Assembly (NCBI GenBank): GCA_964604715.1
Contig: CAZRZR010000001.1
Location: 10,197 to 34,196, forward strand
Direction of reading: 5' to 3'
Length of the DNA stretch: 24,000 nt
Source: Candidatus Woesearchaeota archaeon
Lineage (GTDB): Archaea > Nanobdellota > Nanobdellia > Pacearchaeales > GW2011-AR1
Part shown: positions 1 to 22,203 of the stretch, one piece after another
Layout: every line of letters begins with the position of its first letter
How positions within the stretch are numbered: position 1 is the first letter of the stretch
The notes under the pieces: model-generated
Told to the model about the DNA's origin: nothing
Database searches by the model: none
The model's input: the letters and a program-made list of their open reading frames with translations, nothing else
Translations under genes and position numbers: made by a program

Positions 1-1
1 C

Positions 2-2422
2 GGAAGCTCTTGAAATGATATTGTCTAAGAAATATAAATTCCTATTTCCAGAACCATAAGCAAAATAAGTAGCATGTTTTTTCTCCGTAGCTCCAGCATA
101 ACCCCCTGGACCGTTCAAATATCCGACCTGATTTCCATAATATACAGACCCACTAATGTCAGTCCCCGAAACGCCATTATGAGTGGTAACAGACAAAACA
201 ACAGGCTGATTAGTTGTCTGATTATACTGACTAAACAAGAAATAAGTTTGCCCATTTCTACTATAATAAAAGGCAGTTACATTAAGCAAATTATAGCCTG
301 CCTTTGTATTTACGGCATTCTGTATTTTAGCTGCAACATCTGCAAGCGATATACTTGTTGAGAAATCTAAGCCACTAATCAAATATGTCGCAATCTGTGT
401 GTTCCAATTAGGATCGCTTCGATTATAGAAAGAAATATTGAACTTTCCATTGGTAACTGCAGTCCATTCCGAAATGGTTTTATTAGGAATAAAAATAAGA
501 TCGTGAGAAGAAGGAATATCTGCATTCCATCCTCCAAAATCGTCCAAGTTCTCTTGATAAAGAAATCCTTGCGTGTTTGCAACAAACGTTCCCTGGGCAA
601 AATAGCCTGAATCAATAGACCAACTTCGGACAATCTGACTTCTTCGAAGAGTAAAGTTAACGCTTGACTGAACATTGAGACCGTGGCTATATCCTTCAAA
701 CTTACAATCTTCAATCAAAACGTTCTTTCCTCCTGCAATACTTACAAATCCGTCTGCAGAATCCAATCCCGTTCTATTAGAAATAAATTCAAGTCCATTA
801 AAGGCAAGATAATTACGTTGACCTGAATCAGGAGTAATCCCGCTAAATCCATTAGCCGTATGCAAAACTGGTCGCTTCGTAGACGATCCATACGTTGTCA
901 CAACCATCGGTTCGTTATAAGATCGTCCAGAGCGTAACCACTGATAAATAATTCCGCCCCACTCGCCAAGAGGAGTATGCCAACTATCTCCGCGTTTCAA
1001 AAGCAACCAATCAGGCATATCGCTACGTAGTTTACTTATGCCTACGCCAACGCTTGCACAAGGTACAACGCTTCCGCTTGGGTTATATGGATCGCCAACT
1101 TGCGCAAGCGTATACGCTTTACATACGTTATCATCTCCTGCGTTGCTAACATAAACAAACTGGCTATCACTTGAAGGCGTATAATTGGTCCAACCTTGTG
1201 CATCTCGTGGCAAGCAATAACCTACAGGGCATTCTAAATTAACATTTGTTTGAGCGCACACGCTCGGTTGTCCAGTGCAAGTATAGCCAGATTCAAGATT
1301 ACAACTAGAAGAACAACCATCGTCATTATTAGAATTAAGATCATCGCAGGTTTCCCCTACCTCAATAACGCCATTTCCACAAATAGATCCGGCAGATCCT
1401 CCAAACTCCTCATTATCCTGTGCGTTATCACATCCGCCATCTGCAGGCCAGTCAATCACACCGTTACCATCGTCATCAATACCATTTTTACATTGCGCTT
1501 TAGGATTAGCTTCATCGTTGTCAAAAAAAGAACCGCAGCTGAAATCGTGAGGATAATCAATAGCACCATCATTATCATTATCCAACTCGTCGGAACATTG
1601 GAATTTCAACTGATTCTCACCAACAATTGAACCTACTTTAAATCTAAGACATTTACTTGGTTGGCCTGAACATTTCCATCCGCCCTCTACTTGACAAATG
1701 TTCGAACAACCATCACCATTTACCACGTTCTGATCATCACACTTCTCTGCACCTTCAATAATACCATTTCCACAAACAGCAGAAGTACATGCACTAGTGT
1801 TAAAGATGCATTGATTTGTTAAACCAGGAGCAATACAACTTAAAATCCCGCCGGTAAATCCTTGTCCTAAAGTCATACACGTCTGGCTATTCAAATTGCT
1901 TCCGTCACATTGCTCTCCTTGTTCAATAAGATTATTACCACAAGTGACAGGCGCACCCCAATCAAAAGTAATAACATCAATCTTGCTAGGTAAGGCAGCA
2001 TTAGGCAATTTTACCCTGTAGCGAAAAGAACTTGTAGGTAAAGGACATCCTGGATTGTTGAGATATTGCCCATTAGTAGCATAGCAAGAAGACGCCCAAT
2101 TATTAGTAGAAACGAGCACTTGCACATCGCTCGTACCAACCCATGAAACCTTAAGATTTGAAGAAGATTGTCCCATGGAGATAGTCTTAGAAGTAAATGT
2201 ACCGTCCAGACTGCCCGTACCTGCCCCAGTTCTCACATAATTCGTCGACCCATCCCAGCCCACTTTAGCCCAACTATAGATATTAGAATTAGCACTGAGA
2301 TCTTTAGTATAGTCATCAGTGAAACTAGGAGGCGACAAAGAAACACCGGAATTAGTCAACGTTGAAAAATAAATGAAAAAAAGCGCAACTATTAGTCCAA
2401 AAATCCAATCCCTCTTAAGCAT
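2..2422 (-). CDS. Large secreted or surface protein, paralog A (5' end complete, 3' end beyond the window edge). Contains an N-terminal hydrophobic anchor or signal, a conserved ~130-aa N-domain, DUF4215-type Cys-rich repeats, Asp-rich Ca-loop motifs and a right-handed beta-helix-like region.
   Basis: Absent from the ORF track because it has no stop inside the window. I translated the minus strand by hand from the ATG at 2422-2420 to position 2 and found 807 codons with no stop. MLKRDWIFGLIVALFF...SLSPPSFTDDYT...CGNNLIEQGEQCDGS...CGNGIIEGAEKCDDQNVVNGDGCSNIC...CSDELDNDNDGAIDYPHDFSC...CKNGIDDDGNGVIDWPADGGC...CGNGVIEVGETCDDLNSNNDDGCSSSC aligns almost position-for-position with the 3809..6580 protein up to about residue 410. 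Beyond that it diverges. Confidence 0.85.
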   Translation of the reverse strand, partial: MLKRDWIFGLIVALFFIYFSTLTNSGVSLSPPSFTDDYTKDLSANSNIYSWAKVGWDGSTNYVRTGAGTGSLDGTFTSKTISMGQSSSNLKVSWVGTSDVQVLVSTNNWASSCYATNGQYLNNPGCPLPTSSFRYRVKLPNAALPSKIDVITFDWGAPVTCGNNLIEQGEQCDGSNLNSQTCMTLGQGFTGGILSCIAPGLTNQCIFNTSACTSAVCGNGIIEGAEKCDDQNVVNGDGCSNICQVEGGWKCSGQPSKCLRFKVGSIVGENQLKFQCSDELDNDNDGAIDYPHDFSCGSFFDNDEANPKAQCKNGIDDDGNGVIDWPADGGCDNAQDNEEFGGSAGSICGNGVIEVGETCDDLNSNNDDGCSSSCNLESGYTCTGQPSVCAQTNVNLECPVGYCLPRDAQGWTNYTPSSDSQFVYVSNAGDDNVCKAYTLAQVGDPYNPSGSVVPCASVGVGISKLRSDMPDWLLLKRGDSWHTPLGEWGGIIYQWLRSGRSYNEPMVVTTYGSSTKRPVLHTANGFSGITPDSGQRNYLAFNGLEFISNRTGLDSADGFVSIAGGKNVLIEDCKFEGYSHGLNVQSSVNFTLRRSQIVRSWSIDSGYFAQGTFVANTQGFLYQENLDDFGGWNADIPSSHDLIFIPNKTISEWTAVTNGKFNISFYNRSDPNWNTQIATYLISGLDFSTSISLADVAAKIQNAVNTKAGYNLLNVTAFYYSRNGQTYFLFSQYNQTTNQPVVLSVTTHNGVSGTDISGSVYYGNQVGYLNGPGGYAGATEKKHATYFAYGSGNRNLYFLDNIISRAS
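1256..1381 (-). repeat. DUF4215 / Myxococcus-type cysteine-rich repeat, copy 2 of paralog A (coding)
   Basis: CGNGVIEVGETCDDLNSNNDDGCSSSCNLESGYTCTGQPSVC from my hand translation. Confidence 0.6.
1649..1774 (-). repeat. DUF4215 / Myxococcus-type cysteine-rich repeat, copy 1 of paralog A (coding)
   Basis: CGNGIIEGAEKCDDQNVVNGDGCSNICQVEGGWKCSGQPSKC from my hand translation. Confidence 0.6.
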
Positions 2423-2443
2423 AATTTAACCTACTTTGTAGGA

Positions 2444-2451
2444 TTTAAATA
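2444..2451 (-). promoter_or_regulatory. TATA box of surface-protein gene A
   Basis: The minus strand reads TATTTAAA. Its upstream edge at 2451 is 29 nt from the ATG at 2422. The box sits directly after the protease A stop codon. Confidence 0.6.
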
Positions 2452-2458
2452 ATTACCG

Positions 2459-3748
2459 TTAACAAAGTTCAAGACCGCAATTTCCAGCAGTCGCCGAATT
2501 TACACTTGTTTTAGATAGCTTAGTAAGAAAAACATTTAATTTCCAGAATGTTCGTTCAAGATTAATCCGTTTAAGTTGTGAATTATCTTTTAAATCATCC
2601 CCATTCAGTGCCAGCAAAGTTTCAATCTGCTTGGGAGTCATAGATTTAGATTTTCCATCTAAAGCAATTTTCTGATTAGCAATAGCAAATGATCCAGCAA
2701 CCATCGGTGCAGCCATGCTGGTGCCACTCATCGCAATATAGCCTCCACCACGTTTCGTAGAAACGATTTCAGTGCCAGGAGCCACAAGTTTAACAAATGA
2801 ATTTACGTTAGAGTACGTAGCAAAACTATCGCTCTTATTACTTGCTGCAACAGGAATAGCGTTAGAAATGCACGAAGGCACCGAAATTCTATCAGTCTTG
2901 TAATTATTTCCTGTTGAAATAACAACAGAAATATTCTTTGCAGCAGCTGCATTAATAGCGTTTGCAATAGTAGGGAAGTTCACGTCACAAGCGCCAGTAA
3001 ACCATCCATTGGAGGCAATGCTCATCGAAATAACTGAAATATTATACCGTTCAGCAAGTTGAACAGCCTTATCAATAGAGCGCACAATAGGAACGGTGCT
3101 AGTAAATGTGCCACTAGAACCATTGAACATCTTTAAAGCAATCAAATTAACTCCAGGCGCAATACCCTTTATTCCTCCAGAAGCGCCTGCAATTCCAGCA
3201 ACGTGAGTACCATGACCATTCAAATCAGTCACACTAGTTGAGCCTTGACAATCAGCAAAATTATAACAATCAAACTCTACGCCTGCAATATTCTTTCCGA
3301 TCAAATCAGGATGACTAAAATCAATACCTGTATCAACAATAGCAATAGTCTGTCCAGTTCCAGTCAAATAAGCCCCTTTGTAATTCCAGTTCCAAACTGT
3401 GCTTGCCTTAGTAATACTGGCTGCATCAGTCATGCTAATGCTAAAATCAAGAGCAGGTTCTAATATAGCAACTTCGTCTTTATTAGCAAATTCATTAATC
3501 TGTAAGGCATTAAGTTTAACAACGATTGCCTCAGGATAAAACTTTTCTACAATATTGTCCTCTCCAACTTGAGACGCAATTTTATCGAATGCGTTAGCAT
3601 CGCTAACCCAAATAGTAACTTTAACAGACTCATCACTATCTAACCTCAATAAAGAAGGAGAAACTACTGCCTTTGAACTTACAAAGGCCAGGTTAAACAC
3701 GACCCCTATAGCGAGGCAAAATACCAATTTCATAACCTTATTTTTCAT
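2459..3748 (-). CDS. Subtilisin-like serine protease (peptidase S8), paralog A, with signal peptide and N-terminal propeptide-like region
   Basis: Catalytic triad motifs are present: IAIVDTGIDFSHPDL (Asp), NGHGTHVAGIAGA (His), MSGTSMAAPMVAG (Ser). The N-terminus is hydrophobic. The ORF-track start at 3763 is a TTG. The ATG at 3748 (MKNKVMKL...) aligns with paralog B's MKNKGLLL and lies 29 nt from the TATA box at 3770-3777. Confidence 0.9.
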   Translation of the reverse strand: MKNKVMKLVFCLAIGVVFNLAFVSSKAVVSPSLLRLDSDESVKVTIWVSDANAFDKIASQVGEDNIVEKFYPEAIVVKLNALQINEFANKDEVAILEPALDFSISMTDAASITKASTVWNWNYKGAYLTGTGQTIAIVDTGIDFSHPDLIGKNIAGVEFDCYNFADCQGSTSVTDLNGHGTHVAGIAGASGGIKGIAPGVNLIALKMFNGSSGTFTSTVPIVRSIDKAVQLAERYNISVISMSIASNGWFTGACDVNFPTIANAINAAAAKNISVVISTGNNYKTDRISVPSCISNAIPVAASNKSDSFATYSNVNSFVKLVAPGTEIVSTKRGGGYIAMSGTSMAAPMVAGSFAIANQKIALDGKSKSMTPKQIETLLALNGDDLKDNSQLKRINLERTFWKLNVFLTKLSKTSVNSATAGNCGLELC

Positions 3749-3769
3749 ATAATTTAGGGTCAAAACTAC

Positions 3770-3777
3770 TATATAAA
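3770..3777 (-). promoter_or_regulatory. TATA box of protease A
   Basis: The minus strand reads TTTATATA. Its edge at 3777 is 29 nt from the ATG at 3748. Confidence 0.65.
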
Positions 3778-3808
3778 CCTTTGTATATGTTACTACTTCT
3801 ATGTGACA

Positions 3809-6571
3809 TTAATGTGAAAAACCTTGTTTCATATAACTATTGAAACCATCAGTAGTAAATCTAGTATCCCAATTTTCCTTAGACAATCCTCTAACAGAAG
3901 TCATAAGATTTTCAATATTGTAACCCAATCCTAAAGATTGCGCGTAAGATTCAGGATTTCTTTCAGGATACATATACTGTATTTTCTCAATGACAGAATT
4001 ATCCCCAGTTAAAGAGTTCCATTGGGAAAGCGAATAAATTCCCCCCACCCCTCCAAGATAAAACTGGAATCCAGGTAAATCAGACCAATACTTATTTCCA
4101 GAGAAAACTCCAGGAAGCTGGCTATTAGTACCAAACCAAACGAGCAAAGCCTTTCCTCCAGGTTGCACATCGTTATCTTTGAAAATCAAAGGAGAAGCGG
4201 CTTGAGGTGCATTAAGAGCTACTGCAGGATCATGTAATTCATCTTCAAGATTACGATAAGTCCAATTATAGACGATATTATTATGGATATTAGTATTCGC
4301 AGCACTCCAAGGAATTACGAATGCCAAACTCGAGTCACCGTCAGTGGAATGAACAATTAAATTATGATCAATCTCCACATTCAAAGAATGAACTGGCCAT
4401 ATAGCAAAACCCTTAGGCTGATTGCCGACATTATAATTTCTACTATAAACAAAAGTATTATTGAATATATGTCCCGTAGATGCATCAATATTGTCATCAC
4501 TACCTACAGTTACACCAACATCATTTCTTATAAATACATTATTGTAAACATCGCAACCAGTCCTACATTGAACAGCCCCCCTTCCAGAATTTCTAAACCA
4601 GTTGTTTCTTATTATAATATTTGCCTCTGTTCCATGCTGACCATTATCCTGAGTAGAATAAACGTATTCCGACTGTCTATGTCCAGAATTTATCAAACTT
4701 GTTCGGATATCCATTACATTTCCGTCAACAAGTATCAAACCCTTAGTATTAGAAGTAAAGACTCCCGCCGCACCATTATTATCTTCATATGCCCTATTTC
4801 CATCTATGATAATATTTCTTCTAAAACTAATATCTGAAAAACTAACTTGGGGCGAAATAGAGATTCCGGCACCATAATTCTCAATCATATTGTCTTCAAA
4901 CAATATTCTATTTCCAGTGCTAGTCACATAATAAATTCCTCCAGGACCGCTATCATGACCATCCCACGTATCTGCCCAGAAATGCAAACCAACAATCGCT
5001 CTATCGTGTATATTAGAAGCAGCGGTATAAAAACCATTATTAGACCCTGTCTTAATCAAAGGTCTATTTCCAGTTCCATAAGAACCTATAACTTCAGGTT
5101 CTGAAGCCGAACGTCCGTTTGCACCATACAAACCATTCACTACAAAAGTATCTCCCTTCTTGAAAAGCACCCAGTCAGGATAACCATCTCGTATCTGAGC
5201 TAAAGCATCGACAACATTTGAATAAGCCTGTACACTTATAGATGGATGAGTTGGATCACTTCCAACTTCAGCCTTAGTATATGGTCTTGGATTAGCACTT
5301 CCACTAGAACTAACATAAATTATTCTGCTATCGGTAGATGGAGATAAAATAGTCCATCCAGAACTATCACAAGCAAGCCATTGTTCAGGACAGGCATTTC
5401 CTAGTTGCTGTGCACATGCACTTGGTTCTCCAGAACAAGTCCATCCTGCCTCAACAAAACAGCTTGATGAGCATCCGTCTCCATTATTCACATTAAAATC
5501 ATCGCAGGTTTCCCCTTCTTCAACAAAACCATTCCCACAAAATCCAGCAGTGCTTCCCCCAAATTCAAAATTGTCCTGCTTACTATCACATCCATTATCT
5601 TGAGGATAATCTGTAAGCCCGTTGCCATCATCATCAATACCATTCTGACATTGTGATTTAGGATTTGTCTCGTCATTATCACTAACATCAGAGCAACTAA
5701 AATCAGCCATATCTATCGCACCATCGTTATCATTATCTATCCCGTCATCACACTGCTTTGCAATTTTGTTATCTTTTGTACTACTAAAAATTCTAGAAAT
5801 AATACATTTACTAGGCTGCCCGGAACATCTCCATCCATCTTCAACCCTGCATATAGAAGAACATCCATCTCCATTATTCACGTTTGCATCATCGCAGGTC
5901 TCTCCAGTTTCCTTTATTCCATTTCCACAAACAGGAGGAATACAAGAAGAAAAATCAAAACGGCATTCATCAGATTGCCCAGGAGCAATGCAAGCAAGAT
6001 TACCAGAAGCAAAACCTAAGCTAGAACATGTTTGCCCATCCAAAGAAGTTCCATCGCATTGCTCTCCCGACTCTACAAGATTATTTCCACATACACTAGG
6101 GGGAGTCCAATCAAACCAAATCTTATCAATCTTACTAGGCAAGTTATTATCCGGCAATTTCACCCTATACTTAAAAGAACTGGCGGGCAAAGTGCATCCA
6201 GGAGCAGAAACAATGTAGACTCCATTTTGAACACTACACCAGGAAGCACCATTATTTGTAGAAACAGAAACCTGAACATCGCTGGTTCCAATCCAAGAAG
6301 CCCTTAAGTATTGTGAGCTAGAACCAATTGAAATAGACTTTGATGTAAATGTCCCGTCTAGCCCTCCAGTCCCAGCACCAGATCTCACATAATTCGTAGT
6401 TCCATCCCAAGCAACTTTGGCATAACTAGCAATGAAAGTATTTGAATTTATATTTACAGTATAATCATCAGAAAAACCAGGGGGAGATAATGAAATATTA
6501 GGAGAAAGAGACATAATATACGCAAAAACAAACAAAACAGCCAAAACAAGTAGCAAATCCCTCTTATTCAT
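3809..6571 (-). CDS. Large secreted or surface protein, paralog B (N-anchor or signal, conserved N-domain, Cys-rich DUF4215-type repeats, Asp-rich Ca-loop or MopE-like motifs, right-handed parallel beta-helix C-terminal half)
   Basis: This is the 923-aa ORF in the track. It carries CGNGIKETGETCDDANVNNGDGCSSICRVEDGWRCSGQPSKC and CGNGFVEEGETCDDFNVNNGDGCSSSCFVEAGWTCSGEPSAC repeats, plus CDDGIDNDNDGAIDMADFSC and CQNGIDDDGNGLTDYPQDNGC loops. The C-terminal half has periodic N-N-x-F/I/V turns (IIRNNWFRNS, VYNNVFIRND, HIFNNTFVYS, EIDHNLIVHS, NIHNNIVYNW) typical of pectate-lyase-fold beta-helices. The start is probably the ATG at 6571 (MNKRDLLL), which aligns with paralog A's M1 and is 29 nt from the TATA box. 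The ATG at 6580 is the alternative. Confidence 0.9.
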   Translation of the reverse strand: MNKRDLLLVLAVLFVFAYIMSLSPNISLSPPGFSDDYTVNINSNTFIASYAKVAWDGTTNYVRSGAGTGGLDGTFTSKSISIGSSSQYLRASWIGTSDVQVSVSTNNGASWCSVQNGVYIVSAPGCTLPASSFKYRVKLPDNNLPSKIDKIWFDWTPPSVCGNNLVESGEQCDGTSLDGQTCSSLGFASGNLACIAPGQSDECRFDFSSCIPPVCGNGIKETGETCDDANVNNGDGCSSICRVEDGWRCSGQPSKCIISRIFSSTKDNKIAKQCDDGIDNDNDGAIDMADFSCSDVSDNDETNPKSQCQNGIDDDGNGLTDYPQDNGCDSKQDNFEFGGSTAGFCGNGFVEEGETCDDFNVNNGDGCSSSCFVEAGWTCSGEPSACAQQLGNACPEQWLACDSSGWTILSPSTDSRIIYVSSSGSANPRPYTKAEVGSDPTHPSISVQAYSNVVDALAQIRDGYPDWVLFKKGDTFVVNGLYGANGRSASEPEVIGSYGTGNRPLIKTGSNNGFYTAASNIHDRAIVGLHFWADTWDGHDSGPGGIYYVTSTGNRILFEDNMIENYGAGISISPQVSFSDISFRRNIIIDGNRAYEDNNGAAGVFTSNTKGLILVDGNVMDIRTSLINSGHRQSEYVYSTQDNGQHGTEANIIIRNNWFRNSGRGAVQCRTGCDVYNNVFIRNDVGVTVGSDDNIDASTGHIFNNTFVYSRNYNVGNQPKGFAIWPVHSLNVEIDHNLIVHSTDGDSSLAFVIPWSAANTNIHNNIVYNWTYRNLEDELHDPAVALNAPQAASPLIFKDNDVQPGGKALLVWFGTNSQLPGVFSGNKYWSDLPGFQFYLGGVGGIYSLSQWNSLTGDNSVIEKIQYMYPERNPESYAQSLGLGYNIENLMTSVRGLSKENWDTRFTTDGFNSYMKQGFSH
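5414..5539 (-). repeat. DUF4215 / Myxococcus-type cysteine-rich repeat, copy 2 of paralog B (coding)
   Basis: CGNGFVEEGETCDDFNVNNGDGCSSSCFVEAGWTCSGEPSAC, matching the pattern CGNG-x3-GE-x-CDD-x-N-x3-GDGCS-x2-C. Confidence 0.6.
5804..5929 (-). repeat. DUF4215 / Myxococcus-type cysteine-rich repeat, copy 1 of paralog B (coding)
   Basis: CGNGIKETGETCDDANVNNGDGCSSICRVEDGWRCSGQPSKC. Confidence 0.6.
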
Positions 6572-6592
6572 AAAAAACATTAATTTCTGTAG

Positions 6593-6600
6593 TTTAAATA
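6593..6600 (-). promoter_or_regulatory. TATA box of surface-protein gene B
   Basis: The minus strand reads TATTTAAA. Its edge at 6600 is 29 nt from the ATG at 6571. The surrounding sequence is conserved with 2441-2456. Confidence 0.6.
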
Positions 6601-6606
6601 ATTATA

Positions 6607-7911
6607 TTAACACAAGCCAGAATCACAATTCTCTGTAATCGCTAAGTCTGCATTCGCACGAGACAACTTTTTAAATAAAACATCTAATTTCATAAATACT
6701 TTCTGAAGATTAATTCTCTTAAAACTAGCATCTTTAAGAACATCTCCGTTTTCAGCAAGCAATAATTCAATTTGTTTAGGAGCCATAGACATAGGTTTTC
6801 CATCTAAAGCAAGCTTCTGATTAATCATCGCAATTGAAGCACTAACCATTGGAGCAGCCATGGATGTACCGCTCATGATAGTATATCCTCCACCTTTCTT
6901 AGTAGAGTTTATACTTGTTCCAGGAGCTACCAATTTTACAAAATGGTTTCTATTAGAATATGTTGCAAGAGTATCATCCTTATTACTTGCTGCAACAGGA
7001 ATAGCAGAACTGATACATGACGGCACGGAAATCCGATCGGTTTTGTAATTATTACCTGTCGAAATTACTACCGATATATTCTTCGCAGCTGCAGCATTGA
7101 TAGCAGTCGCAAGGGTAGGAAAGTTAGCATCACATGCTCCAGTAAACCATCCATTTGAAGCAATACTCATAGAAATAACTGAAATATTATATTGTTCTGC
7201 AAGTGCCACCGCTTTGTTAATAGAGCGCTCAATAGGCACAACGCTTGAAAACGTGCTACTCGATCCATTGAACATCTTGAGAGCAATTAAGTTAACCCCT
7301 GGAGCAATGCCACTAATCCCGCCAGAGGCTCCAGCAATTCCTGCAACATGTGTTCCATGTCCGTTCAAGTCAGTCACACTAGGCGATCCAGCACAATTAG
7401 CAAAATTGTAACAATCAAATCCAACTCCTGCAATATTCTTAGCCGCTAGATCGGGATGAGTAAAATCAATACCAGTGTCAATTATCGCAATAGTCTGACC
7501 TACTCCAGTCAAGTTCTGACCATTGTAAACAATAGGCCATACATCTACGGCATGCGTTATCTTCACAGCATCATACATAGAAACACTAAAAGTTGGTGCA
7601 GTTTCAAGACCAGCAACGTTCGCATGGGTGCTTAAGCGATCCACGTCTACACTCGAAAGAGAAGCGACAACTGCTTCTGGATAGAAGCGATCCTTGACAT
7701 TATCTTGCCCTATAGAAGCGACAACTGCGTCAAAAGCTTCCTGAGAAGGGACATTACCTTGATAATCAACACGAACAGTTACTAGCACACTGTCAGTATC
7801 TGCTTTAAGCCCCTTAAGAGCGGGAGATACATATGTGGCAGAAGCAAAACTTACAAGCAACAGACAAGCTACAAAACCTATAATCCCAAGCAAAAGACCT
7901 TTATTTTTCAT
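6607..7911 (-). CDS. Subtilisin-like serine protease (peptidase S8), paralog B
   Basis: Catalytic motifs are IAIIDTGIDFTHPDL, NGHGTHVAGIAGA and MSGTSMAAPMVSA. By eye the catalytic core is roughly 85% identical to paralog A in protein. A 70-nt stretch I aligned by hand (around 2878-2947 against 7022-7091) had 57/70 matches. Confidence 0.92.
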   Translation of the reverse strand: MKNKGLLLGIIGFVACLLLVSFASATYVSPALKGLKADTDSVLVTVRVDYQGNVPSQEAFDAVVASIGQDNVKDRFYPEAVVASLSSVDVDRLSTHANVAGLETAPTFSVSMYDAVKITHAVDVWPIVYNGQNLTGVGQTIAIIDTGIDFTHPDLAAKNIAGVGFDCYNFANCAGSPSVTDLNGHGTHVAGIAGASGGISGIAPGVNLIALKMFNGSSSTFSSVVPIERSINKAVALAEQYNISVISMSIASNGWFTGACDANFPTLATAINAAAAKNISVVISTGNNYKTDRISVPSCISSAIPVAASNKDDTLATYSNRNHFVKLVAPGTSINSTKKGGGYTIMSGTSMAAPMVSASIAMINQKLALDGKPMSMAPKQIELLLAENGDVLKDASFKRINLQKVFMKLDVLFKKLSRANADLAITENCDSGLC

Positions 7912-7932
7912 ACAATCCCCTATGTTTCAAAC

Positions 7933-7940
7933 TATTTAAA
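7933..7940 (-). promoter_or_regulatory. TATA box of protease B
   Basis: The minus strand reads TTTAAATA. Its edge at 7940 is 29 nt from the ATG at 7911. Confidence 0.65.
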
Positions 7941-8020
7941 TCTATGTAATTGTTACTACTAGGTTATGACAAATAAGGCCATTTATCCTATTAGGAAGGC
8001 AAAAACCTTTCTCATGCATA

Positions 8021-11956: not shown

Positions 11957-12319
11957 TTAAGGATATTTCTTACAAAGAGAAGTTCCAGTGTCACAACCAG
12001 AAGTACAAATATTACAAGACCAACCATACGTATTAGCCCCAGTCTTACCACAGGTGCAAGCGCAATCTCTGTTTGACCCATCATTCGATTTAGAACAATG
12101 CTTGTCCTTATAGGTGCCAGCATTACAGGTCTGACCTTGAGGATCACTGCAGAAAGAAGCATCATGATCTCCACCAATTCCAACTAGACCATCGCCAATT
12201 CCAATAAAGCCGATTGAAACAGGGCCATCAGCACTAGCAAAAGAAGTCAAAGAAAGACTATAGCCAAAAGCAGCTAAAGCAACCAAACAAATTACTCCAG
12301 GAGTAATCCACTTATTCAT
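11957..12319 (-). CDS. Small secreted Gly-rich, 10-cysteine protein
   Basis: The signal-like N-terminus MNKWITPGVICLVALAAFGYSLSLTSFASA is followed by DG. Next comes the Gly-rich GFIGIGDGLVGIGGD, then 10 Cys within about 65 residues (FCSD..TCNAG..HCSK..DCACTCGK..SCNICTSGCDTGTSLCKKYP). It has its own TATA box at 12341-12348, 29 nt from the ATG. Confidence 0.7.
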   Translation of the reverse strand: MNKWITPGVICLVALAAFGYSLSLTSFASADGPVSIGFIGIGDGLVGIGGDHDASFCSDPQGQTCNAGTYKDKHCSKSNDGSNRDCACTCGKTGANTYGWSCNICTSGCDTGTSLCKKYP

Positions 12320-12360: not shown

Positions 12361-13305
12361 TTACAAATCCTGCAAATCATCAACTTCATCAGCAGTCAAA
12401 GCTCGATCCCATAATCTCAATTCATCAAATGAGCCTTGGAAGTGAGCCATTTCTGCGAAGTTTCCAAAACCAGAACCAATTCTGATAGGCAAGTGAGATT
12501 CGAATACACCATCAATCTTGTTAATATTTCCTGTAGTGTCTCCAACACGGTTTCCATCAATATAGAGGTTCTGCTTCCCTGGTTCAAATGTGCCAACAAA
12601 TAAGTGCCATTGACCATCTTGATAAAATTCATTGCATTGTCTTGTATAAGCTCGATGATCATTGTTTCCACTAGTGCCGTCCTCAGAAACATATAAGTCA
12701 ATACCAGAGCATTTACCGCCTTTAGCAATATCTGCCTGCCAGCTCACTCCGTCTTTTCCATCCCAAGTACCAATAAAGAATTGTCCTGCTTCGTTCTTAG
12801 TTCCTTTGAACCAGAAAGCAACGCTAAATGCCTTGTCGAATGATAATGAAGATGTAGCTGGAATAGTTACTAGGTCGTTAACCCCGTCAAAAAGCAAACC
12901 ATTATTGTGTCGTCCCGAGACTCCGCTTTGTGGACACTCAGAGCCAGAGCATCGTGCTTCTCTGTTGTTTTCGTCATTTTCAAAACGTGTAGAGTTTGCG
13001 CCTTCATCAAATGAGAAGTAAGCAACAATTCCATCCTCAACACTACTTGTGCGATCATTATTGCTTGAGTGTGATGTTCCACGTTGTGTGTTAAACTGCT
13101 GACTGTAGAGGGATTCATAGTACAAAGGATCTTCAGCTTGACCCTGTACAATATAAACTGGTTCTTGAGGAGCAACCTTGACAACTTTCTCAGCCGTATA
13201 ATTAAAGTTATAGAAAACCATCAAAGACAACACTAGGCCTACAAGAATGCATCCGAGTAATACAAAAAATATAGCAAGTTCATTAGAACCTTTTCGTCCG
13301 TTCAT
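12361..13305 (-). CDS. LamG / concanavalin-A-like lectin domain protein (Laminin_G_3 type) with N-terminal TM or pilin-like signal
   Basis: FDGVNDLVTIPATSSLSFDKAFSVAFWFK ... LYIDGNRVG ... FQGSFDELRLWDRALTADEV is the characteristic Laminin_G_3 pattern. The N-terminus is MNGRKGSNELAIFFVLLGCILVGLVLSLMVF. Confidence 0.8.
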   Translation of the reverse strand: MNGRKGSNELAIFFVLLGCILVGLVLSLMVFYNFNYTAEKVVKVAPQEPVYIVQGQAEDPLYYESLYSQQFNTQRGTSHSSNNDRTSSVEDGIVAYFSFDEGANSTRFENDENNREARCSGSECPQSGVSGRHNNGLLFDGVNDLVTIPATSSLSFDKAFSVAFWFKGTKNEAGQFFIGTWDGKDGVSWQADIAKGGKCSGIDLYVSEDGTSGNNDHRAYTRQCNEFYQDGQWHLFVGTFEPGKQNLYIDGNRVGDTTGNINKIDGVFESHLPIRIGSGFGNFAEMAHFQGSFDELRLWDRALTADEVDDLQDL

Positions 13306-21507: not shown

Positions 21508-22203
21508 CTAACTTCTTAATTCTACAAAAACATGTTTTTTTATGTCTAATTTTTTATGAAATTCCGGAAACAGTTCCTTATTTTGAATCTTTTCGACCAT
21601 TTGATTTAGAAGTCCATCGTAAGGATAAGTGTAACAATCATAAAAGGTGCCATAATAATCGAACCCGTGCAATAACTCAGGCAACTCTTCTAAAATATAG
21701 GTTCCAAGTTTTATTTTTTGTTCCTCGGTAAAATTGTTATCTGCAAGATGCAAATTAACTATTTTCAATATTTCCATCCTAAAAATAACGTTTTCTTCAT
21801 ATTCTTTATAGAAAATTGATAAAAACTCCTTATTAAACGACGACTTTTTTACTTCATCCCATCTTATTATATCAATTCGTCTTTGTTCTTCTAAAGGAAG
21901 TTCTTTTATTATTTGTTCGAGAACGATTACCATTTCATCTCCTTTCTTCAAAGCCTTCCTTCTAGCTTTCTCTGAAGAGTCGCCATTTCTCACTTCATAA
22001 TTAATAGAATGCAACGTGTCTCCAATAAGCAACCCTGCTCTATTCTTGGTATATTGTAAGCACCATAATAGATTTTCTTTCAAATGACTTTTAGTAAACC
22101 ATTTATTTCCCAAACTAATGCCTACATAAATATTAAATTTTTTATCTTGGACTTCCTTGAGAGAAGCTCCTCTAACCATCAACGCAATTGCTTTGCTTTT
22201 CAT
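21508..22203 (-). CDS. tRNA-dependent cyclodipeptide synthase (CDPS) family protein
   Basis: I aligned it by eye to AlbC and YvmC as I remember them. NIYVGISLGNKWFTK matches ALIGISAGNSYFS and VLVGISPFNSRFS (catalytic Ser in G-I-S). SSEKARRKALKKG matches RGKAERKVRKE. GTYILEELPELL matches NYVLAEAPLF and EYVIAELPFF (Tyr178/Glu182 equivalents). The 231-aa size fits. A possible alternative start is the ATG at 22179. Confidence 0.75.
   Translation of the reverse strand: MKSKAIALMVRGASLKEVQDKKFNIYVGISLGNKWFTKSHLKENLLWCLQYTKNRAGLLIGDTLHSINYEVRNGDSSEKARRKALKKGDEMVIVLEQIIKELPLEEQRRIDIIRWDEVKKSSFNKEFLSIFYKEYEENVIFRMEILKIVNLHLADNNFTEEQKIKLGTYILEELPELLHGFDYYGTFYDCYTYPYDGLLNQMVEKIQNKELFPEFHKKLDIKKHVFVELRS

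Follow-up and report, generated by a model that had tools for sequence, protein, structure and literature searches.

Described systems related to the locus

Extracellular proteases, beta-helix proteins and variable surface genes are brought together in several described systems. In Bordetella, the beta-helix adhesin FhaB is processed by the subtilisin-type protease SphB1 (PMC6070651). In the SPEARE proteins of Nanohaloarchaeota, for which a part in host interaction has been proposed, adhesion (LamG) domains are joined to a serine protease. These are single polypeptides of ~650 to 8,500 amino acids (aa), the one from Ca. Nha. antarcticus having 5,998 aa, and they also contain a transmembrane segment and, inside the cell, a type III restriction-enzyme region (PMC6642349). 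Hypervariable cell-surface islands are exemplified by the cell-wall island of Haloquadratum walsbyi (PMC4535781). The locus considered here lies in the window, a stretch of 24,000 nucleotides (nt) of contig CAZRZR010000001.1 from a Candidatus Woesearchaeota archaeon. It carries two successive cassettes, each consisting of a gene for a subtilase (S8) and a gene for a modular surface protein with an N-terminal sandwich domain, a Cys-rich stalk and a beta-helix head of type A or type B. It is interpreted, with moderate confidence and at about an even chance, as an island that varies between strains and encodes glycan-directed surface proteins together with a co-acting protease.

According to this interpretation, the disulfide-rich stalk would hold the beta-helix head off the cell, and the head, aided by the sandwich domain, would bind and possibly cut a polysaccharide or glycan layer, which might belong to a host cell envelope or to the environment. 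The secreted subtilase would work in that same space outside the cell, with either the target surface or the surface proteins as its substrate.

Similarly to FhaB/SphB1, the locus has a beta-helix surface protein and a subtilase that could, by analogy, process its partner. Unlike that pair, the window system lacks a TPS domain, an autotransporter and an outer membrane; the Bordetella FhaB and SphB1 genes are not known to be arranged in tandem cassettes. The window proteins share with SPEARE a DPANN extracellular protease together with a surface function. Membership in that group was rejected, since the window protease and surface protein are encoded by separate genes, have 429-1119 aa and carry no nuclease domain. 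As in hypervariable surface islands, near-identical flanks enclose surface genes differing in content and alleles. However, the window island is very small (4-8 kb), lies between housekeeping genes and represents one repeated two-gene theme, with a crossover inside the protease gene.

The head has the same right-handed beta-helix fold as GH136, PL6, PfbA and the tailspike depolymerases (Foldseek E 7e-7 to 1e-3). Secreted beta-helix enzymes and adhesins are modular, with accessory beta-sandwich domains, as are the window surface proteins; in contrast to them, the window head shows only 8-16% sequence identity and TM-scores of 0.34-0.50, and the polar motifs of its B type are degenerate. The Cys repeat is the same as in TIGR02232 and DUF4215 (PF13948) proteins and is also found in pappalysins. 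In the window proteins these repeats make up only a ~230-aa stalk between two other modules.

Organization of the island and its relatives

The cassettes include four genes.

6607..7911, minus strand: protB, secreted pre-pro-subtilase (S8) of 434 aa (open reading frame, ORF, and PF00082)
3809..6571, minus strand: surfB, secreted or surface protein of 920 aa, identical to database protein P0001
2459..3748, minus strand: protA, second pre-pro-subtilase (S8) of 429 aa (ORF and Pfam)
1..2422, running past the window edge, minus strand: surfA, A-type surface protein with 807 codons inside the window

All four ORFs are present at the positions given by the first-pass annotation, which was made from the sequence alone, and follow on the minus strand in the order S8 protease B (protB), surface protein B (surfB), protA and surfA. 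The surfB start, ATG at 6571, agrees with P0001 and with the promoter spacing. Full-length surfA corresponds to P0005 (1119 aa); the surface proteins had been called giant, a term that sizes of only 920 and 1119 aa do not justify. Exact-sequence look-ups of surfB, surfA and P0001 gave no match on record. Comparison with related loci shows that the island is situated between the gene of prolyl-tRNA synthetase (ProRS) and, in relatives, gatD.

L002, a 270-kb contig of another species (ProRS 68% identical): ProRS, A-type protein (P0003), 145-aa ORF, B-type protein (P0002), one S8, GatD
L004-6, three Logan assemblies: B-type protein, S8, GatD
L168-171 and L003, five assemblies: S8, A-type protein (P0004), GatD
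L168:10001-14728: one-cassette haplotype island, present also in L169, L170, L171 and L003

P0002 of L002 is the surfB orthologue (79% identical), and the surfB-protA junction of the window is homologous to the B-type-to-S8 junction of L002 and L004. In all readable loci of close S8 relatives (at least 58% identity), a surface-protein gene is immediately adjacent. This is the case in the window (twice), L002, L004-6 and L003/L168-171; P0188, located on a 1,550-bp contig with unreadable flanks, is outside this count. By their labels, the nearest S8 relatives are Nanoarchaeota, Woesearchaeota or Pacearchaeota, which makes a DPANN affiliation of the organism likely.

Scanning the genome collection with the S8 alignment revealed no close relative, the best match being 39% identical, and provided a negative control: none of the 80 genome loci with S8 relatives of at most 39% identity encoded either the N-domain or a member of this beta-helix family within 10 kb. 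One of two loci with a 40% identical S8 has no such neighbour, and the other has a faint DUF4215 protein two genes off. The metagenome scan by surface-protein alignment yielded mostly generic Cys-repeat proteins, which were used as a control. The S8 neighbour present beside the window proteins was encoded in 0/79 metagenome loci with generic DUF4215 proteins (794 kb). The linkage of S8 with the surface protein is real and confined to a small clade; its order is unfixed and its ratio is not 1:1. Conserved adjacency in related genomes, for which the first-pass annotation had suggested a search, is present in every related haplotype with readable flanks and is specific to the clade.

Two haplotypes of one species

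L168 is collinear with the window; in the 10 kb preceding the island, each 500-nt interval shows 98.2-99.8% nucleotide identity, and the flank proteins ProRS, LamG and GatB/E are 99.8%, 99.7% and 99.3% identical, respectively. It carries one cassette versus two in the window. The S8 gene of L168 is a mosaic that is 99-100% identical to protB over the first ~860 nt and 91-98% identical to protA over ~200 nt and then diverges from both. The A-type protein of L168 is 63% identical to that of the window and is closer to the one of L002 (69% overall and 71-78% in two beta-helix segments), although the L002 ProRS is 68% identical. The locus has, therefore, the features of a strain-variable surface-protein island, namely near-identical flanks, a cassette count of 1 versus 2 and divergent A-type alleles.

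A simple unequal-crossover deletion converting the window haplotype into that of L168 was ruled out as the full explanation, since downstream of the crossover the identity to protA/surfA is only 56-88%. The pattern shows that homologous recombination has replaced alleles and altered the copy number, and at least one of the crossovers falls within the conserved core of S8. Through this reshuffling, strains that are otherwise nearly identical carry heads differing in number and allele.

The haplotype with one cassette recurs in five assemblies: four, which come from different samples, are 100% identical, and the fifth is 99.7% identical. The independent Logan assembly L001 matches window positions 6324-8008, a stretch that starts upstream of protB and reaches into surfB, with 100% identity. 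Both haplotypes appear to be real, with the reservation that the copies of each could in principle stem from the same read sets.

Age and extent of the duplication

A unit of roughly 4.1 kb had been described as occurring twice in a row. Direct DNA repeats are indeed found 4145-4158 nt apart with 70-73% identity, and the proteases and the N-terminal parts of the surface proteins are paralogous; the beta-helix halves, however, are not copies of each other. Over 634 aa, surfA and surfB are 51% identical, with 62-64% in the N-domain and stalk (first ~390 aa) and 35%, 25% and 24% in successive segments along the head. Heads A and B have 23.5% identity to each other in the trimmed alignment of the family; the A head is 34% identical to P0311 and 33% to P0147 (with a T9SS tail), and the B head 32.5% to P0061. 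P0061 and P0311, the nearest non-orthologous head homologues, lie on short contigs. In searches of the collected proteins, neither head type was among the other's 25 best matches, and the two form separate clades. Since each head is nearer to homologues of other organisms, the unit was not duplicated as a whole. Judging from these identities, the repeated part is the protease, anchor, sandwich and stalk, and the heads differ.

The overall identity of protA and protB is 66%, with 83% in the core but only 57% in the tail and 40% in the pro-region, and the 5' part of protA has only ~50% DNA identity to protB. All segments of protA and protB show a synonymous divergence (pS) of 0.62-0.67 (core 0.65, pro-region 0.67), and surfA and surfB one of 0.66-0.71. 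Saturation of the synonymous sites indicates an old duplication. Recent gene conversion as a cause of the 83% identity of the S8 cores was ruled out by the core pS, which is as saturated as that of the pro-region. For the S8 core, the ratio of nonsynonymous to synonymous divergence (dN/dS) is ~0.09, and for the N-terminal halves of the surface proteins it is ~0.15; to judge by these values, both cassette copies are maintained by purifying selection.

Architecture of the surface proteins

The surface proteins open with a hydrophobic signal or anchor helix, and the N-terminal architecture of surfA (anchor, sandwich, stalk) equals that of surfB.

6092..6496, minus strand: surfB N-domain (aa 26-160), all-beta sandwich with a conserved Cys pair
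5390..6091, minus strand: surfB stalk (aa 161-394), three myxo-type Cys repeats flanking two C-x-D-G-x-D-N-D-x-D-G loops
3812..5389, minus strand: surfB head (aa 395-920), B-type, right-handed beta-helix with a C-terminal helical cap
~4658-4726, minus strand: motif sites of the surfB head (aa 616-638), corresponding in surfA to aa 623-632 and 783-786 (family alignment)

The N-domain comprises ~135 aa and had been regarded as private to these proteins. In an exhaustive search it turned up in ~35 further representatives of 50%-identity clusters, where its position varies. In the Pfam scan of the ten best-scoring representatives, LamG_3 directly precedes it in nine; several proteins bearing the N-domain also contain beta-helix, DUF4215 or MopE-motif regions. 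Structure prediction, which had been suggested for this domain, gave a confident beta-sandwich in the AlphaFold model (pLDDT 91.4), but its fold relatives CBM6, CBM35 and CBM29 are matched weakly (Foldseek E ~3e-3, TM 0.39-0.49).

The stalk is ~230 aa long, disulfide-rich and acidic. The Myxococcus-type and DUF4215 Cys repeats recognized earlier exceed the family cut-offs: TIGR02232 gives 94-98 bits (cut-off 20.8) with three stretches per surface protein (98 bits in surfB), and DUF4215 gives 30-42 bits (cut-off 27). The only PDB sequence match of the stalk is the pappalysin repeat. The two CxDGxDNDxDG loops, taken for calcium or metal sites, are present as described, but the acidic double-disulfide repeat NF033662 scores 21-23 bits, below its cut-off of 41, and the Pfam MopE motif PF11617 does not match the stalk even at E<=1.

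The head module has ~530 aa in B and ~700 aa in A, the A-type subfamily containing a ~120-aa insertion with a weak DUF3383 match. The pectate-lyase-type fold proposed for it is borne out by the AlphaFold model of the B head (pLDDT 86.7, pTM 0.91, regular strand pattern) and by Foldseek, whose top matches are all beta-helix proteins, including GH136 lacto-N-biosidase (E 7e-7), PL6 alginate lyases, PfbA (E 1e-4) and phage tailspikes. The conserved Asn residues recur at a spacing of approximately one coil. Pfam Beta_helix (PF13229) does not match the window proteins and matches 15/45 family members. The family sequence profile gives a local match of ~100 residues to GH136 (E 8e-7) in the N-terminal 'YVSS..G.D...GD.VLL.RG' region, with TM-scores of 0.34-0.44. 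The B head has 65 homologues, most of which span 98-100% of the module, and head homologues bear CBM6, BACON, dockerin-like, GH115_C or T9SS additions.

The family motifs EENxxDHNGxxW and HNxY are replaced in the B head by DGNxxDIRTxxS and EYxY and are partly kept in A, which may reflect a loss or change of catalytic activity. Other family-invariant charged residues are retained (D466, D474, E559 and R584-R585 in surfB numbering).

The unfamiliarity of the architecture, stressed in the first-pass annotation, holds, as the domain combination has no Pfam or NCBIfam annotation and no description of it in archaea was found in the literature. The parts are of known kinds (S8, TIGR02232/DUF4215, beta-helix fold), while the head and the N-domain are unannotated families.

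Possible roles as glycan-directed proteins or adhesins

The surface proteins are probably displayed or secreted. An enzymatic role of the head is favoured by the CBM6, BACON, dockerin-like, GH115_C and T9SS modules of its homologues and by the many invariant charged residues that are kept. Several points speak against a strain-variable island of glycan-directed proteins. The best-conserved polar motifs are largely lost in B and partly in A, which fits binding without catalysis. The TM-scores of the head against solved enzymes are only 0.34-0.50, no curated carbohydrate-active-enzyme family was matched, and the CBM-like assignment of the N-domain is weak (E about 3e-3). Activity, location and target of the proteins are deduced from their sequences, and host association solely from homologues with a DPANN-like affiliation. 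Between species, the B-type protein has changed less than ProRS (nonsynonymous divergence, dN, 0.12-0.16 versus 0.25), so the island is not wholly hypervariable, and the right-hand end of the window's island falls beyond the window.

The beta-helix proteins might instead be non-catalytic adhesins to a host or surface, acting as a rigid binding platform such as PfbA of Streptococcus pneumoniae. This is thought improbable but merits serious weight. PfbA belongs to the top fold matches (E 1e-4), the build from stalk and anchor resembles that of adhesins, and allelic replacement among near-identical strains is typical of recognition proteins. The degeneration of EENxxDHNGxxW and HNxY in B, and in part in A, points the same way if these motifs are catalytic. 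Retention of D466, D474, E559 and R584-R585 and the enzyme-typical accessory domains of homologues, such as CBM6 and GH115_C, argue against a purely adhesive function.

The subtilases and their pairing with the surface proteins

Both proteases match PF00082 in Pfam, protB with E 3.9e-41 and protA with E 8.4e-43; the scores are 141.7 and 147.2 bits versus a gathering cut-off of 21.8. The triad D145 (DTGID), H185 (GHGTH) and S350 (GTSMA) and the oxyanion residue N287 (TGN) are invariant or near-invariant in the alignment of 17 sequences, which includes both copies. By inspection, each protease has a signal peptide with an A-x-A-like site, an I9-like pro-region and four conserved Cys residues. 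The C-terminus (window 2459-2530 and 6607-6680, minus strand) forms an amphipathic helix followed by N/A/G-C-x5-C, which is N-C-x5-C in the window copies. In promoter and position, protA corresponds to the one S8 gene present in L002 and in L004.

The A-type surface proteins (P0005, P0004 and P0003) end with C-x4-C and then an amphipathic helix, and the B-type proteins lack such a tail. The tails of the S8 and A-type proteins, each with a Cys loop and an amphipathic helix, could represent a shared anchoring or interaction signal.

Several other assignments of the subtilases were rejected. The type VII secretion mycosin family (TIGR03921) gives 126-130 bits versus an equivalog cut-off of 278.75, reflecting generic S8 similarity only. 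For an IetS/IteS-type defence system, PADLOC returned a generic subtilase only and nothing for the surface proteins, NF042956 scored 15 bits versus 900, and the proteases carry signal peptides. A phage origin was set aside as well, PHROGs giving only generic subtilase matches.

The first-pass annotation had proposed that a protease is retained with each surface protein as a dedicated protease-substrate pair, each subtilase maturing, activating or shedding the product of its neighbour. The adjacency on which this was based stands, being strict in this S8 clade and absent for distant S8 and generic DUF4215 proteins. The S8 tail and the A-type allele downstream of it also vary together, in that the tail of L003/L168 is 72% identical to that of protA and 53% to that of protB, but physical linkage alone could explain this co-variation. 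Further points in favour are the FhaB/SphB1 precedent (PMC6070651) and the presence of a short Cys loop and an amphipathic helix in both the S8 and A-type tails. The one-to-one pairing does not hold, however. L002 has two surface proteins and one S8, L168 couples an S8 having a B-type pro-region to an A-type surface protein, and the S8 gene precedes or follows the surface-protein gene, depending on the locus. The genes do not share promoters, and those of the S8 genes contain a distinct upstream element. Since the mature cores are 83% identical, different, copy-specific protease specificities are unlikely. Dedicated pairing is, therefore, considered unlikely overall, with about the same weight as a purely adhesive function.

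Promoters and possible independence of the genes

The following promoter elements were distinguished.

7933..7940, minus strand: protB TATA octamer TTTAAATA, -29 to -22 from ATG
3770..3777, minus strand: protA TATA octamer TTTATATA, -29 to -22 from ATG
6593..6600, minus strand: surfB TATA octamer TATTTAAA, within the conserved spacer from the protB stop to the surfB ATG
2444..2451, minus strand: surfA TATA octamer TATTTAAA, within the conserved spacer from the protA stop to the surfA ATG
7951..7959, minus strand: S8 upstream element GTAGTAACA of protB, part of TGTCAYA-N5-GTAGTAACA-N10-TATA
3788..3796, minus strand: S8 upstream element GTAGTAACA of protA, part of the same pattern
L002:12782-12802 and L168:9941-9961: S8 upstream element in relatives (pattern match)

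A TATA box 29 nt from each ATG had been reported, and a TATA-like octamer does lie at -29 to -22 from the ATG in all four cassette genes; octamers of this type number just 15 in 48,000 positions. The conserved spacers from the S8 stop to the surface-protein ATG were likewise reproduced, the related genome included. The same TATA distance is seen for many other window genes and, therefore, corresponds to the ordinary leaderless promoter layout of the organism. The four cassette genes are predicted to be separate transcription units, each with its own TATA promoter and leaderless mRNA.

GTAGTAACA has two matches in the window (0.1 expected), both upstream of S8 genes. Among the 171 loci scanned, the full pattern occurs solely upstream of S8 in L001, L002 and L168-171. 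The element lies exactly 10 nt upstream of the TATA box in all S8 genes of the clade and is absent from the rest of the window and from 165 other loci; in L004, the internal spacer of the S8 element has a different length. TGTCAYA-N5-GTAGTAACA is probably a binding site of a transcription regulator, for which it is at present a candidate.

The separate promoters are also consistent with the protease and a glycanase being independent secreted hydrolases that serve nutrient scavenging, are neighbours by clustering of secreted genes and are not coupled. The variable order and ratio of the genes and the other genes for secreted proteins close by, at 12361-13305 (LamG_3) and 11957-12319 (Cys-rich), fit this explanation. 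It does not account for an adjacency that outlasts rearrangement in four distinct arrangements and at least two species and is absent for distant S8, and it is viewed as somewhat less probable than either adhesion or dedicated pairing. An assembly artefact joining two strain variants, which mixed populations would make plausible, as the one-cassette haplotype of the same species occurs in several samples, is very improbable in view of the independent 100% copy in L001 of the stretch from upstream of protB into surfB, the homology of the surfB-protA junction to the B-type-S8 junction in L002 and L004, the ~50% DNA identity of the protA 5' part to protB, which makes collapse of repeats inapplicable, and the joint presence of A and B types on the 270-kb contig of L002.

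Neighbouring genes in the window

Two further genes for secreted proteins lie 4-5 kb from the cassettes.

12361-13305, minus strand: LamG_3 secreted protein, 314 aa
11957-12319, minus strand: Cys-rich secreted protein, 120 aa

The LamG protein of the window is 37% identical to that of L002, versus 68% for ProRS. The N-domain of the surface proteins is fused after LamG_3 in other organisms, which hints that the nearby LamG and Cys-rich proteins may cooperate with the cassettes. Elsewhere, the window encodes TBP, Nre, an ATP-dependent ligase and archaeal-type GatB/E, which identify the organism as an archaeon. Three other ORFs deserve mention.

21508-22203, minus strand: 231-aa ORF matching the cyclodipeptide synthase family (Pfam CDPS, 35.5 bits, cut-off 27), which is unexpected for a small archaeal genome
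15472-16494, minus strand: acylphosphatase domain N-terminal to a prenyltransferase of undecaprenyl-diphosphate-synthase type, a fusion kept in L168
20189-20824, minus strand: 211-aa ORF with no Pfam match and, by eye, a GIY-like motif near the N-terminus (KNGIYVLFED); it might be a candidate nuclease

Significance of the island

A more far-reaching proposal is that the locus is a swappable cassette of a DPANN archaeon for host recognition and attack, in which the protease would activate or release its neighbour and would serve as the homology arm for head exchange. It is regarded as doubtful, and more so than the independence of the two hydrolases. If it is true, heads of differing specificity would be exchanged between strains and even species, and host range or virus evasion could shift by cassette replacement.

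Modular secreted proteins and variable surface islands in general are already familiar. The ~530-aa beta-helix module represents an unannotated family widespread among secreted proteins. The ~100-aa beta-sandwich of the N-domain, found mostly after LamG domains, is likewise an unannotated module widespread in secreted proteins, and the conserved archaeal promoter element specific to the protease is newly identified.

DPANN archaea rely on contact with other cells, through molecules that are largely unknown. The island, with the same anchor and stalk, different heads and a linked protease, provides a compact and tractable candidate for the study of DPANN surface biology, and its natural haplotypes, which belong to one species and differ at this locus only, make it possible to examine whether the cassettes carried vary with host, habitat or virus pressure.

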